A DNA stretch of 60,254 nt, filler included, from Dugesia japonica (GCA_001938525.1; 6 parts of 6 records of this genome joined end to end with filler, not necessarily neighbours in it), one strand, 5' to 3'; shown: positions 49,048 to 60,254, counted from the first letter of the whole stretch. Numbers and translations are program-made. Notes: a model not told the origin generated them from the sequence alone.

Positions 49048-49221
49048 CTAAAATTCACACACTAAGCGAAAAAACTGTAAGAAAGTATTTAATTAGATTT
49101 AACATTCCTTATAATAAAATAATACAAAAAACAAAAGTATATAGAAAACCAAATGGAAGATTTATGTCAGTATTATATAGATATGCCGTGAAAATTATGA
49201 ATCTATAAAAATTATGAACCT

Positions 49222-49404
49222 GTGAGAAATTATGAACCTGTGAAAAATTATGATGATGATGTTTCTTTTTTTAAAGAGATGAAAGAAGTGATGATGGAAG
49301 CCAAAGAACTCTATAACGAAAAACAGACTGAAAAGCAGCGTGAAATCGACCACGGTAATAGAAAAGAAAAAAAGAAAACACACACCATTAAAAATTTACA
49401 ATAG
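49222..49404 (+). CDS. Small charged Polinton protein with NYEPV repeats (18-bp unit); true start probably ~49182 with a lesion
   Basis: AAATTATGAACCTGTGA is repeated. The ORF ends 3 nt before the MCP start. Confidence 0.45.
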   Translation: MRNYEPVKNYDDDVSFFKEMKEVMMEAKELYNEKQTEKQREIDHGNRKEKKKTHTIKNLQ

Positions 49405-49407
49405 AAA

Positions 49408-50680
49408 ATGGAAGTAAAAATAAATCTTGATAATAATATTATGTTTAGTCATGAAATGTTAAAAAATGATATTTTAAAAATTTCACCATCCTCTAGTANA
49501 NTTACAAATTTAATAAAAGGTGGGGAGATAACATTTCAATCTTTACAATCAACAAATTCATTAGACATTGTAATGCAATGTTATACTTTAGAATAGAAAT
49601 AGAATATACGGAAGGAAAAACTGCAATACTAGAAAATAATTTTTTCCCATCTTTATTTAAATTTATGAGATTAAAACTTGGGGCNNNNNNNNNNNNNNNN
49701 NNNNNNNNNNNNNNNNNNNNNNNNNNNNNNNNNNNNNNNNNNTACTCATAGACAAATATATGGAGAATTAACAGGATGGGTTTTAGATGAAGAGCGAAGA
49801 AAAAAATTATACAAAACTAAAAAATTTGAAGGTTATTTTCCATTGAGAAATTTATTTGGTTTCATGCAAAATTTTAACCGAGTACTTTACAACACAATGA
49901 TTGAATTTAATTGTTATAGACAAATTAATAATAAAATTTTATTTAAAGGAGAAGGAACACCAAATTTAAAATTAATGACTTTAGAATTACACATTCCAGA
50001 ATGTAGATTGGCACCAAAAATGGAATTAATGCTTTTAGAAAGAATTTCAACCGATAAACCAATTAAAGTTGCATTCTTAAATAGAATAACTGGTAAAGCA
50101 ATATTAAACACCGGAAATTATACTTCTATAAAATTAAGCATGCTAGCATACAAACCAAGGTATATATTTATAGTCATGAAAAATGAAATTAATTCTTTTG
50201 CAAATGATGATAATTTATTTATACAAAAGAAAACAAAAACCACAAAAGCAATAGTGCCATCAACAGCTGATAAAATTGAAACTTATTATTTTAAAAGTGT
50301 GTAAATACAAATAAACAATAATTACTATCCAATTAATGAATGTAAATTTAATATGGAAAATAATGAAATGTGTCCCCCTATTTTAATTATTTAAAATGTT
50401 GTCAAGATTTTTTAACAGAACCACAATTATCTCTTCAAGAATTTGGTGAACTATATCCAATTTTCTGTTTTGACTTAACAGCACAAGATGATAGATTAAA
50501 TATAAATAATGTTGATGTTACACTTCACATTACAAAAGATCCTGATTTTACAGCAAGTCTTTACTGGTGCATTCTTGAGGAAAAACATGTAGAAATGAAA
50601 TTNNNNNNNNNNNNNNNNNNNNNNNNNNNNNNNNNNNNNNNNNNNNNNNNNNNNNNNNNNNNNNNNNNNNNNNNNNNNNA
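49408..50680 (+). CDS. Major capsid protein (double jelly-roll, hexon-like), frameshifted and gapped in this assembly
   Basis: Motifs NL..GGEITF, LENNFFPSLF, YFPLRNLFGF..FNRVL, KPRYIFIV, INNNYYP, LYPIFCFDL, matching Polinton/adintovirus MCP motifs. Confidence 0.85.
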
Positions 50681-56274: not shown

Positions 56275-56865
56275 ATGAAAAATTTCCTATGTAAAATGGC
56301 AGACGAATCATTATATCCAGATTTAAAAAATTATCAGCAAGAAATAAATAATTATACACTTGAAGACCTAAAAAGTAAATTGTCATCCTTAAGAATTAAA
56401 GATTTTGAAAATGACTTATATTTCATAAATGATAAAATAAAACATTATCAAAAATTTTATGCAAAATGGGCCGCCACCGATGACGGAATAAAAGTTGCTC
56501 AAATTATAATTGGAACCGGCGTGGCTATTGTTTGTGTAATTTTCGCAACTCCACTTGGAATAGGAATTATTACAATTGGTCTTCCCATAATAACTGGAAT
56601 AGGATCTTCAATTCCAATCACTGGTGCTCTGAATTCTTCCTTAATTCAAAAGAAGAAAAAGAAGTATAGTAATTTAATTTTAAAATTAGAGGCTGTAAAA
56701 AATAAACTTTTTATATTTCAACAAAAGGCTTTGAATGATAATATTTTAACAGATGAGAAAATTTCTTCAAGTAAATCTATGATTCGAGAAGTTCGTGAAA
56801 TAATTTTAAAATCTAAAATTGAAAATCCAAATTATGAAAAAATTTTAACTAATTTGACAAAATAA
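56275..56865 (+). CDS. Membrane-active 'gasderminX'-type adintovirus protein (two-helix hydrophobic hairpin)
   Basis: SLYPDL, helical N-terminus, ~45-aa Gly-rich hydrophobic stretch, KKKKKY, KALNDNILTDE. The likely start is MADESLYP at 56296. Confidence 0.7.
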   Translation: MKNFLCKMADESLYPDLKNYQQEINNYTLEDLKSKLSSLRIKDFENDLYFINDKIKHYQKFYAKWAATDDGIKVAQIIIGTGVAIVCVIFATPLGIGIITIGLPIITGIGSSIPITGALNSSLIQKKKKKYSNLILKLEAVKNKLFIFQQKALNDNILTDEKISSSKSMIREVREIILKSKIENPNYEKILTNLTK

Positions 56866-59800
56866 TTTTCCCCATAATAAATCAAATCTTAAATGCCAGT
56901 CTTGACAATTTTTACAATAAAATTTTATGCCGTGGGGCCATTCTATAATTCCATTAAGTTCTAATAAATGTTTATCATTATATCCCGATATTGCAATTTT
57001 CTTTTGTGATACTAATTCTATTTGATGTTTGTAAGATTTTCTATAATTTATTCCATAAATCGCTTCTTGAGAATCTTTTAAAATTTTGTTATAAGCCTCC
57101 ATTTGTATGTTGTTAGATTTTGATTTTCCATTATGTTTAGCATTATAAGTTTCACTTCCATCTTCATTTTTATAATTAATTGCATAACCTTTTGATTTTA
57201 TAAAACAAGCTTCTGTAATTATACTATTAGGCGATTCGTCTTTCATTTGAAAAAGATCATTTCCTAATATACTTTCCAATTTTTCCAAATTTTCTCGCCG
57301 CTTGATTTCCACAAAGATTGAGTCAGTATCAGAATAGTGAATTTTATAATTTTCCGTTCCAATTAGTGGAGCCATCTGTTTATACACAAAATTATACATA
57401 ACCTCTTTTGCAATTTCTAAAATTGTAAACCCAATGAATGGAAATTTGTTATATTTTAAATTGGTTTGTTGCATGTGCATCACAGCTATATTAGGAGGAA
57501 ATGTTTTTGAATATTTATAATTTGGTCTTCCAACGAGTCTTTTAAAATCTTTATCACATGTAACAATTTCTATATTACAACGGTTTCGAATATCTTCAAG
57601 GGTTTTCCCATAAAATGAATTATTCAAACGTTTAAATAAATAATCACCAAATTCATCATCATTTCTTTTTGCTTCATTTCTCTTTTCAACATTAAAGAGA
57701 ATATAATCTCTCAACATTTTGTTAACATTTTACATTTATAATGAATTTTTCTCAACTTCATGCCAAGTTCTAAATAAAGATCTAATGTACTTCCAAAAAC
57801 AATGTAATTTTTTTTTATCTAAAGTGTTAAGTGTTAATTTAACATTATTTTTAGGGTGTTTTCTATTAAATTCCCTTTGATGTGGACTTAGCATTTCTTT
57901 TGTAATATTTATCCTATCTGGGGCTAGTGGATAATATCTCGTTTTTCATGAATTTCAGGTTGGTAATCTAAATCCACCTCATAGAGGAAATTATAATCAT
58001 CTGTTGCTATTTCATAAGTTAAATCCTCACATTCAATAAGTTCACCTTTTGGAAGGGGTCTTGTCATGCAAGCAGAATATAGAGAATTTTCATCAAGATA
58101 TTTTAAAAATGTTNCCTCAAAATAATCCTCTGGAATATTTTCTCTTCGTTCTATTATTTTCATTAAATCACCATATTCTACAATTGTTAATTTCTTGTTT
58201 GTGGAAATTTTTTTATTATAGGGAAAAACTTGCCTCTCACCACAACCTCTTGAGTAGCCTCCTCTAATTCCTCTTTCTATTTTAAAAAATATTGATAATG
58301 TTTCTGATTTTGCATATTTTAATTTAACTCCTGTAAATTTCATCCCTGCAGCCCATGAAGTCCTGGTGCTGAGTAACAATAACAAGGATCGATATCATAA
58401 TATTCTAAACAAGTAACTCTAAAACTTTCAAAAAAGTCTGTAAGAATTAAAACATCGAGCCTCATGTAATGTTTTGTATATTCCCACATGTTATTAAAAT
58501 TCTTAAAATCTTCAAAAAATTCATTATACTCCTTTTCAGTTATTTTTTCTGTTTTAATGTATTATGAAAATCCTCCATTCCTGGAATTCTATCTGATTTT
58601 AATAATCTAATTACTTCTTCCACATTTCCCCCTTTTATATACTCATATGGAAATATTATTTTTTNNNNNNNNNNNNNNNNNNNNNNNNNNNGAGGACATT
58701 TACCAGTTTTATTTAACATTGTCCCCATTTTTTCTATTGATGTTTGGTTCCACATTCTGCTAGAATCGAGGAATCTAATATTTTTAAATTCAAATGAAAT
58801 ATATACTTTATCATTCTGTGAAATTCTATTAGAAATATCCTTTGGATGTTTTTCTATTAATTCTCTAAAGAAAAGATGATTGTCATAACCAGAGCCATTG
58901 TGAAAGTAAAATGGAATAAATATTTTTTTATCTGCTCGTTGGATACATTTTTTATGTGCGAAGCCGCGGAATTCTCCAGATAATTTATCAAAATCATTTC
59001 CCCGATCATCATCTAAATATTTTTCACAATACCTACATTTATTTTGTATGTGGTGTGGAACATTTTTTTCTTCTGGGGGATTATCCATAATATCATTTAT
59101 TTTTTTATTTAATAATTCTAAATATTTTATAAAATTATTTAAAAGATTTTTTCCTCTGAAAGTATTTACATGTGTGGGAATTAAATCTTGATATAAACTT
59201 TCAAACCACACTTCTAAACATAATGGTTTTTGTTTATTATCAAAAGTGCAAGTGTATGTTTCAAAATCACCATATGCCGCAAATGGAACTGGATTTTTGA
59301 AATGATGATTTTTATAATAAAAGAATTTTTCTCTGCAAAATCTTGTTTTTATTGGTTTGTGATGAATGCATTCTTNNNNNNNNNNNNNNNNNNNNNNNNN
59401 NNNNNNNNNNNNNNNNNNNCAACCAATGCATAAATTATTTTTATTTTTATTACATAATTAACTATTTAAATCTCTACAAAGTACATAATGTCCATTATAA
59501 AATAATAAATTACATTTATTTTCTTCTTGGTCTGGTTTGCATGAAAAATGAGAAGTATAAAGTGGAGTAAGATTTTTTTCATTTATAATTTCAAAAACAT
59601 TTATTTTCCAATTATTTCTTCTCTCAAAACATTTTACATCTTCTACTCTCATTGGAAACCTAAAACTTCCATAATTTAACTCACTAAGAAATTATTGATA
59701 CCCAGCTTGTCTTGGATTTTCTAATCTATGTTTATGTTCTAGGATTGAGTAAAGGAAACATTTATCATCATCATTTTTTATATTAACAACTCCAATTTTT

Positions 59801-60254
59801 TTAAATGGTAATTTTACATATGAAGAACCCCCAGCTAAGGAATCATAAGCATNTAATTCAATTGAATAACTAAGTATATATTGTAGTGTCNAACCACTCC
59901 CTACTCTAGCTTCATCTTCTAAATATCTTTGGAGGTCTGCTAATTGTAATAAAACAGCTTCTCTAATTTTCATTTTTTCTGTTATTTTTTCAACTTGCAC
60001 GTAAGATTTAAAATTTTCTTCATCATCTTTGAGGTATTTATATATTTACCTGTGGCAGATAATCTAAGATTTGCTTTCTTTTCATGTTCAAAAAATGTCT
60101 CTACAATTTCTATTATTTCATCAATATATTGACTAAGCACTTTTTCTTCAAGTTCAGAAATATCCATCTTCACTTTAATTCTACTGTTTTTAAAATGTTT
60201 AATTTCATATTCAGGATATTTACGTTTAAATAATCTATTAAGATTCCGATCCAT
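56845..60254 (-). CDS. polB: Protein-primed family B DNA polymerase, split over several ORFs by frameshifts and gaps
   Basis: Motifs GSG..L, VVNIKNDDDKCFLYSI, NLLFYNGHY, FYFHNGSGYD (ExoII), IRFLDS, FPYEY, GIRGG, YLDENSLY (A), KRLNNSFYGKT (B), YSDTDSIF (C), KSKGYA. Confidence 0.96.

Follow-up and report, generated by a model that had tools for sequence, protein, structure and literature searches.

A broken Polinton copy in a planarian genome, probably one of a large diverged family, with a phospholipase A2 domain likely fused to its integrase

Results

Gene content of the Polinton block

The DNA analyzed here is a stretch of 60,254 nucleotides from the planarian Dugesia japonica (GCA_001938525.1), six parts of the assembly joined by filler, and the whole of it is called the window below. 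Its last part, 49048-60254, is a compact, intron-free block of Polinton (Maverick, adintovirus) genes, with ten genes on the plus strand followed by the protein-primed DNA polymerase (PolB) gene on the minus strand (Table 1). The block was analyzed by a Pfam scan of its 29 natural frame pieces, by a motif scan, and by tblastn with intact relatives. The Polinton gene set is genuine, far beyond what chance would produce. Its catalytic motifs are readable: Exo I to III and Pol A to C of PolB together with the Cys and His motifs of the OTU domain, the D, D, and E of the integrase, the H, D, Q, and C of the protease, and Walker A and B of the packaging ATPase. We consider it highly probable that the block is a broken Polinton copy. 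Its class is likely Alpha (group 2), and the AT-rich animal genome around it likely contains several hundred diverged copies of the kind.

A preliminary description, made from the sequence alone, had announced a near-complete, tightly packed and intronless adintovirus with a virion gene module, about 12 open reading frames (ORFs), and strongly diverged proteins. The packing and the virion module were confirmed by Pfam, fold, and motif matches, and the PolB, integrase, and protease catalytic residues that it had listed are all there, though those of PolB lie in three frames. The divergence also held up, as the best identities in the collections searched were 55% for the ATPase and 42.5% for the PolB piece. 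The ORF count came down to 10 assignable genes, and "near-complete" had to be given up, since six of these genes are interrupted and neither end is in view. Nor is the host poorly studied, as had been supposed: 13 of the 24 listed sequencing runs, from six studies, contain the stretch, and many RNA runs carry the same organism label.

Polintons measure 15 to 20 kb, have terminal inverted repeats, and are flanked by a 6-bp target-site duplication. Neither a terminus nor such a duplication is in view, the left side of the element ending at a 100-base linker, which is not a terminus, and the right side at the end of the window, where PolB runs to the last base; among the 25 longest of 276 inverted pairs, there was no terminal pair fitting a Polinton. 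The GC content of the element (21 to 28%) is like that of its flanks, with 18 to 37% over the window, and Rfam gave 0 matches in 44000-60254.

Four metagenomic Polintons (L015, L017, L021, and L025) and the IMG/VR element L001 were compared with the window. Their genes are mostly open, they all share a pX-like ORF with GxG-[IL]YLxP repeats, and they are only 25 to 61% identical to the window in the aligned pieces. L025 has nearly the same gene order, namely, capsid, pX, ATPase, conserved ORF, penton, protease, and accessory ORFs, followed by PolB on the opposite strand. L001 (2530-14761 of its contig) is a nearly complete, mostly open Polinton with a full gene set, including capsid, PolB, protease, pX-like and SLATT-like ORFs, and a phospholipase A2 (PLA2) directly before the integrase. 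The short frame pieces at the left edge of the element did not match the positional ORFs of L017 or L021.

Table 1. Coordinates of the Polinton genes, the preceding linker, and the related second copy
Feature	Coordinates	Strand	Basis or remarks
Linker (44 N, 12 bases, 44 N)	48948..49047	.	Same linker at 10044, 18561, 28169, 37476
Short frame pieces upstream of the capsid gene	49048..49404	+	Small helical ORF at this place in relatives
Major capsid protein, double-jelly-roll family, interrupted (frame changes, internal stop, N gaps)	49408..50602	+	PF21738, tblastn
Probable fusion gene with a zinc-finger-like start, then parvovirus-type PLA2 and rve integrase; several interruptions	50680..51873	+	L015 alignment
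A32/FtsK-type packaging ATPase, 251 aa, open	51948..52703	+	PF04665 (Pox_A32) E 6.5e-11; Walker A and B
pX-like core protein precursor, in two frames	52708..53224	+	Gly-Gly site, hydrophobic segment, two GxG-[IL]YLxP repeats
Conserved Polinton ORF of unknown function, in three pieces	53263..54109	+	C-terminal piece 40-41% identical to L014/L015
Likely penton (minor capsid protein), one internal stop	54063..54785	+	Position before protease; 25-31% identity to relatives
Adenain-type cysteine protease, 144 aa, open	54767..55201	+	Fold match; catalytic H, D, Q, C present
308-aa ORF of unknown function, open	55164..56090	+	Two short P..D..N.KF motif repeats; shared with second copy
196-aa helical-hairpin protein, central hydrophobic stretch, open, SLATT-like	56275..56865	+	L040; fold match
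Protein-primed PolB, interrupted	56845..60254	-	Relatives carry PF02945; motif scan; tblastn
Second, more decayed copy of a related family	866..3269	-	Has conserved ORF, penton, and 308-aa ORF homologue; protease lacks the catalytic Cys; 61-69% nucleotide identity

A PLA2 domain at the front of the integrase gene

PLA2 had been listed in the preliminary description among three membrane-active candidates; rather than a gene of its own, it is likely the front of the integrase gene, with its active site broken in this copy. The integrase piece matches the rve profile PF00665 above the cut-off (E 4e-12), and the PLA2 piece matches PF08398 weakly, under the cut-off (E 0.009). The integrase D, D, and E motifs lie at 51266, 51431, and 51536, with a stop directly after the Glu. 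The integrase piece ends at a gap, up to which there was no sign of a chromodomain. The His-Asp pair of PLA2 is not readable in any plus-strand frame, and one of the interruptions falls inside the active site.

The same arrangement is intact in L015, where a single frame of 438 aa carries both PF08398 (1e-9) and rve PF00665 (1.5e-11) and aligns in order to the PLA2 and integrase pieces of the window (three pieces in three frames, E 2e-55). In L001 the two domains are adjacent, and four Atlas clusters (67 to 184 members) carry both, three of them with Preplasmiviricota as the commonest phylum among the few members recorded. These comparisons suggest that the integrase gene begins with the PLA2 part and that the ancestor likely encoded both as one protein. 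A programmed frameshift between the two parts was ruled out, since the breaks differ between the window and L001 and L015 is one frame. A single-protein scan of viral contigs with L015 gave no match.

In all three elements aligned, a Gly-Gly precedes the PLA2 domain and a Gly-Gly or GxG follows it. The published adenain cleavage motif, (MIL)XGXG or L(LR)GG (10.1101/341131; here and below, published statements are taken from the available portions of the sources), is matched exactly by the downstream site of the window only. No description of a PLA2-integrase fusion was found in the literature searched, which holds few subscription papers or Repbase reports. As judged from the clusters and elements above, the arrangement appears to be common in sequence collections, yet undescribed in the papers found.

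Capsid, ATPase, protease, and penton genes

In the interrupted major capsid protein (MCP) gene, the piece at 49675-50301 matches PF21738 with an E value of 8e-8 (32 bits, cut-off 27), and the intact MCP relatives match this profile at 7e-56 to 1e-16. When the intact L017 MCP was aligned to the window by tblastn (E 3e-23), it ran through two frames and one stop. With one piece above the cut-off and the pieces aligning along the intact relatives, the sequence profile places this gene in the double-jelly-roll family.

The ATPase has 12 relatives, the best being the one of 55% identity given above, and it had no match in the single-protein scan of viral contigs. Its Walker A motif (52029-52052) ends in Asn, not in Thr or Ser; the same ending was seen in seven of the nine closest motif-bearing relatives and in none of the 42 motifs found in 54 loci. 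From these sequences, the Asn ending appears to be a lineage trait.

Catalysis in adenains relies on His, Asp, Gln, and Cys residues, all of which the protease has. Its model, folded with five relatives, reached a predicted local distance difference test (pLDDT) score of 87, and the first six PDB matches were adenovirus proteases (best E 7e-4); a sequence search of solved structures was without match. The gene before it is 25 to 31% identical to ORFs of 256 to 261 aa in L017, L021, and L025 over most of their length and had no Pfam, NCBIfam, or PDB sequence match. Its position, the conserved ORFs, and motifs that we take to be those of pentons make 54063-54785 a likely penton gene; the pentons of Polintons are single-jelly-roll proteins.

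The interrupted PolB

The C-terminal PolB piece has 3,892 relatives at E values of at most 1e-3, and the L001 PolB aligns to the window in four pieces over three frames, the same number of frames over which the motifs are spread. The N-terminal OTU domain is recognized by a Cys motif at 59755-59775 and a His motif at 59479-59493; a similar Cys motif occurs in 33 of 44 long relatives. Against PF03175 (DNA_pol_B_2), one piece scored an E value of 0.0096, under the cut-off, and the PolB relatives match this profile weakly or not at all (two of eight in one set; 4e-10 for P0182). The best identity of the PolB piece among 126 rows of at least 200 residues was the 42.5% given above. In a FastTree analysis of the window piece with the 45 best-scoring of 125 rows (46 rows, with no labelled Alpha or Beta references among them), the window paired with P0182 with a support of 98.

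An endonuclease VII insert is frequent in the PolB relatives, 21 of the 44 long ones having the strict pattern. The corresponding insert of the window (58945-59037, minus strand) keeps the first Cys pair but not the Asp-His and Cys-Asn residues usually present, and judging from this it is probably inactive. The idea that this insert contradicts Jeong et al. was dropped, because their statement concerns pPolB2 only and the insert has already been reported in Spodoptera Mavericks.

pX-like and accessory ORFs

The pX-like ORF is 30% identical to an L021 ORF that itself matches Adeno_PX at 4.7e-4, under the cut-off. It has only about 50 residues ahead of the pX segment, and its C-terminal GxG-[IL]YLxP repeats recur in 8 of the 54 loci. 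Because pX is an ORF of its own beyond the ATPase and PLA2 runs on into the integrase, this copy does not have PLA2X, i.e., PLA2 with a C-terminal pX, which is a typical accessory trait of Alpha elements and not a defining one.

The 308-aa ORF had no Pfam or NCBIfam match. That it might be a fibre homologue was unsupported, with a pairwise E value of 0.16 and no significant match to the positional L025 ORF.

The 196-aa ORF had been called gasderminX-like in the preliminary description, and its positive matches are of SLATT type instead. It has three relatives and is 28% identical to L040, which matches NCBIfam SLATT_1 at 1.5e-5, under the cut-off. The model is a helical hairpin with a pLDDT of 60. 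Among viral structures, it matched a protein of an invertebrate iridovirus best (E 2.9e-3), and 4 of the first 27 rows were SLATT proteins. Foldseek on PDB listed no gasdermin in the rows displayed (0 of 354 matches at E values of at most 0.001), nor did a wide structure search, which returned generic helical bundles (best Z 10.1), although at a pLDDT of 60 neither search excludes anything. A word search (267 candidates) gave no relative, alignment was without match in the viral-contig scan or in solved structures, and the Atlas clusters reached have low recognition. SLATT-like would thus be the better label, with moderate confidence from the sequence and model matches.

Interruption, abundance, and related copies

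Natural frames and tblastn show that 6 of the 10 assignable genes are interrupted (capsid, PLA2-integrase, pX, conserved ORF, penton, and PolB), and that the ATPase, the protease, the 308-aa ORF, and the 196-aa ORF are open. The element is therefore not an intact virion-capable one, as its capsid, penton, integrase, and PolB genes are all interrupted in the assembly. As assembled, this copy is dead: it cannot make capsid, penton, integrase, PLA2, or polymerase and is decaying as repeat DNA.

Twelve of the 13 runs with the element bear one organism label and one bears another, and the shares of the element present range from 0.06 to 0.37; the runs with the best shares assemble to 280 to 930 million letters. 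At 90% likeness, 13,750 and 13,775 contigs from two DNA-type runs aligned to the element, covering 30 of 30 bins, and 58 to 59% of them were merely 90 to 95% alike. Summed depth at single positions rose to 5,838 and 6,863, compared with about 8 to 16 for long contigs without any difference. It is likely that these contigs come from a large diverged family of several hundred copies. At some positions the depth came to about 200 units for each contig, pointing to groups of near-identical copies. A joint of 59144 with 56425 had a summed depth of 881 to 997 in the two DNA-type runs, about a hundredfold that of a single contig, and is likely a rearranged or deleted derivative present in many copies.

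In an oligo-dT RNA run, 42 reads of 13.6 million fitted the element, all of them partially, and run X8 mirrored the DNA profile. No RNA run was among the listed runs containing the element, which says nothing on expression. Silencing of Polintons by PIWI-interacting RNAs (piRNAs) is on record in planarians (PMC8532177), and the near absence of poly(A) reads would fit with it.

In three of four stretches, the second copy differs from the main one most often at the third position of codons, and because of this excess both lineages were likely active while they diverged. A tandem array of 28-bp units at 1-248, just past the second copy, could be a subterminal repeat. A decayed third PolB fragment (10224-11507, plus strand) is 36 to 38% identical to L001-type polymerases versus 24% to P0182, so it likely belongs to another family.

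Other features of the window

An LRRC9-like host gene (23527-27675, plus strand) forms a single open frame of 1,382 codons; in many animals, LRRC9-like genes are split into many exons, and a single frame is unusual. Its relatives are 25 to 28% identical among the named animal matches in the region searched, and the best unnamed one is 55% identical. A decayed hAT (Spin-type) transposase lies at 12059-13756 (plus strand) and a remnant of a long terminal repeat (LTR) retrotransposon integrase at 30895-31281 (plus strand). A repeat that is both dispersed and tandem, with a unit of 314 to 318 bp made of two halves of 157 to 161 bp, occupies 4692-5430, 13987-14888, and 18677-20001; the literature search found no paper on a planarian satellite matching the 157- to 161-bp repeat.

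Discussion

Several observations weigh against reading the block as a decayed Alpha copy of an abundant family. The 11.2 kb of the element contain 15 N runs, compared with 18 in the other 48.9 kb of the window; only 0.29 to 0.37 of its words are present in the best DNA runs; and at many positions the letter of the window is not supported by any aligned contig, such contigs being known to drop rare variants. Part of the damage may therefore stem from the assembly of a high-copy repeat. Summed depth is no copy number and was taken as an order of magnitude, the RNA-run count was without a host-gene control, and in run X8, which was taken as RNA by a guess, reads fell in 30 of 30 bins. As for the genes, the PolB class comparison lacks labelled Alpha or Beta members, a first reading from the weak PF03175 match was Beta, and the predicted cleavage sites fit the published motif exactly in just one of three elements.

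The element might be a young, largely intact Polinton whose breaks are short-read assembly errors or reflect a mosaic of paralogous copies. The high gap density and the low word share would fit with this, as would the positions at which all depth differs from the window, and one 50-N gap has a duplicated 22-mer at its two sides and is spanned by contigs, which is typical of an unmerged overlap. We nevertheless consider it improbable, because 1,898 and 1,823 contigs show a likeness of 99% or more, several of 132 to 146 bases match without difference at a depth of 8 to 16, in-frame stops and the loss in the active site of PLA2 are among the breaks and lie far from gaps, and the second copy and other repeats of the window are decayed too, while the host frame of 1,382 codons is open. 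A free virus, or a contaminant from another organism joined into the host assembly, has in its favor that the element joins the rest of the stretch only across a gap and that contaminants of this kind are on record for adintoviruses (PMC8502044). It would hardly explain the presence of the element in runs of one organism label from six studies between 2014 and 2025, a cloud of diverged copies instead of a clonal genome, decayed genes, and a related copy in the same window, and we give it very little credence. The setting is that of an endogenous element, with an animal LRRC9-like gene, hAT and LTR-integrase remnants, and a second decayed Polinton in the same window.

With regard to class, Alpha (group 2), whose PolB is characterized by grouping with Mayetiola adintovirus and bidnaviruses, seems the more likely assignment. 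PolB has the N-terminal OTU domain, the domain profile of its relatives equals that of the Spodoptera Mavericks, and PLA2 is typical of Alpha/group 2 (PMC8502044, 10.64898/2026.06.19.733378). A Beta-class adintovirus with an accessory module of GasderminX, in which pX follows a domain like the C-terminal one of gasdermin, and a cupiennin-like protein, as the preliminary description implied, would draw on the near failure of the PolB pieces to match PF03175, since Starrett et al. define Beta as divergent from this profile, and on the fact that some elements with Alpha PolB carry Beta virion modules (PMC8502044). However, the Spodoptera Mavericks, which are bidnavirus-like, combine the same weak DNA_pol_B_2 match with an endonuclease VII (PMC5803895) and stand in the Alpha panel of Starrett et al. 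(PMC8502044); this is why the first reading as Beta was dropped. Moreover, the 196-aa ORF matches SLATT type, a label present in the Alpha panel, and the stretch ahead of the pX segment is short. A Beta element is therefore unlikely.

By gene content, the element resembles the Alpha adintoviruses or group 2 Polintons (Polintoviricetes) of Hydra, Stylophora, and Spodoptera (PMC8502044, PMC5803895) in its OTU-bearing pPolB with an endonuclease VII-like insert, rve integrase, A32 ATPase, adenain, capsid, penton-position gene, PLA2, pX-like segment, and SLATT-like ORF. Unlike in those elements, PLA2 is here joined to the integrase and not to pX, pX is an ORF of its own, and the copy is broken. A degraded endogenous adintovirus on human chromosome 7 (PMC8502044) likewise keeps the full gene order amid stops and frameshifts; the window copy is far less eroded, with four genes open, and belongs to a high-copy family. 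In flatworms, a 2014 table names four Repbase Polintons of Schmidtea mediterranea (Polinton-1_SM, Polinton-2_SM, Polinton1_SM, and Polinton2_SM; 11.6 to 15.9 kb) and gives capsid, penton, ATPase, and protease, the complete virion set, for two of them (Table S1, PMC4028283). Compared by gene content only, they may be the first candidates for close kin or identity. Of 73 flatworm genomes surveyed in 2023, 8 contained pPolB1 linked to an integrase, 748 in all (PMC10748475 supplement), and a 2026 preprint describes how Mavericks expanded in Dugesia (10.64898/2025.12.11.693146); no paper on a polintovirus capsid in flatworms was found in the literature searched. The distance of the element from the searched proteins is weak evidence of novelty, because the collections hold few proteins from repeat-masked animal genomes.

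The functions known from the family, namely, protein-primed replication, release by OTU, rve integration, a double-jelly-roll capsid, packaging, and maturation (PMC4028283, PMC8502044, PMC11161782), allow a picture of the active ancestor. It would have copied itself by the protein-primed PolB, with the terminal protein released by the OTU domain, and inserted via the rve integrase, while the capsid protein and penton would have formed an icosahedral particle to be filled by the ATPase and matured by the protease. Particles of Spodoptera adintoviruses are indicated by unpublished data quoted in PMC8502044. From the present comparisons, we propose in addition that the ancestor may have made a PLA2-integrase polyprotein; cleavage by the protease would then take place on both sides of PLA2, at Gly-Gly or GxG. 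Parvoviral PLA2 has a role in entry (PMC8502044, PMC4061559), and because an entry lipase makes sense only in a particle, its fusion partner would be packaged too; the integrase and the membrane-breaching lipase may thus have traveled together in the particle.

As it stands, the finding is mostly ordinary, since decayed Polintons with a virion module are widely reported, from nearly all animal groups (PMC8502044). The element is best read as a decayed member of a large endogenous Polinton family, in which PLA2 was probably fused to the integrase. A stronger version can be put forward only tentatively, namely, that this is an undescribed lineage with hundreds of copies in a planarian genome, with young sub-families and with integrase and PLA2 made as one protease-processed virion polyprotein. 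If so, the particles of these elements would bring the integrase along, and a large, datable virus record would exist in a laboratory animal whose piRNAs are known to control Polintons. The family, being large and far from the searched proteins, may mark a flatworm branch missing from adintovirus trees; meanwhile, the PLA2-integrase fusion, for which a naturally intact relative exists in L015, bears on how Polintons enter cells and integrate.

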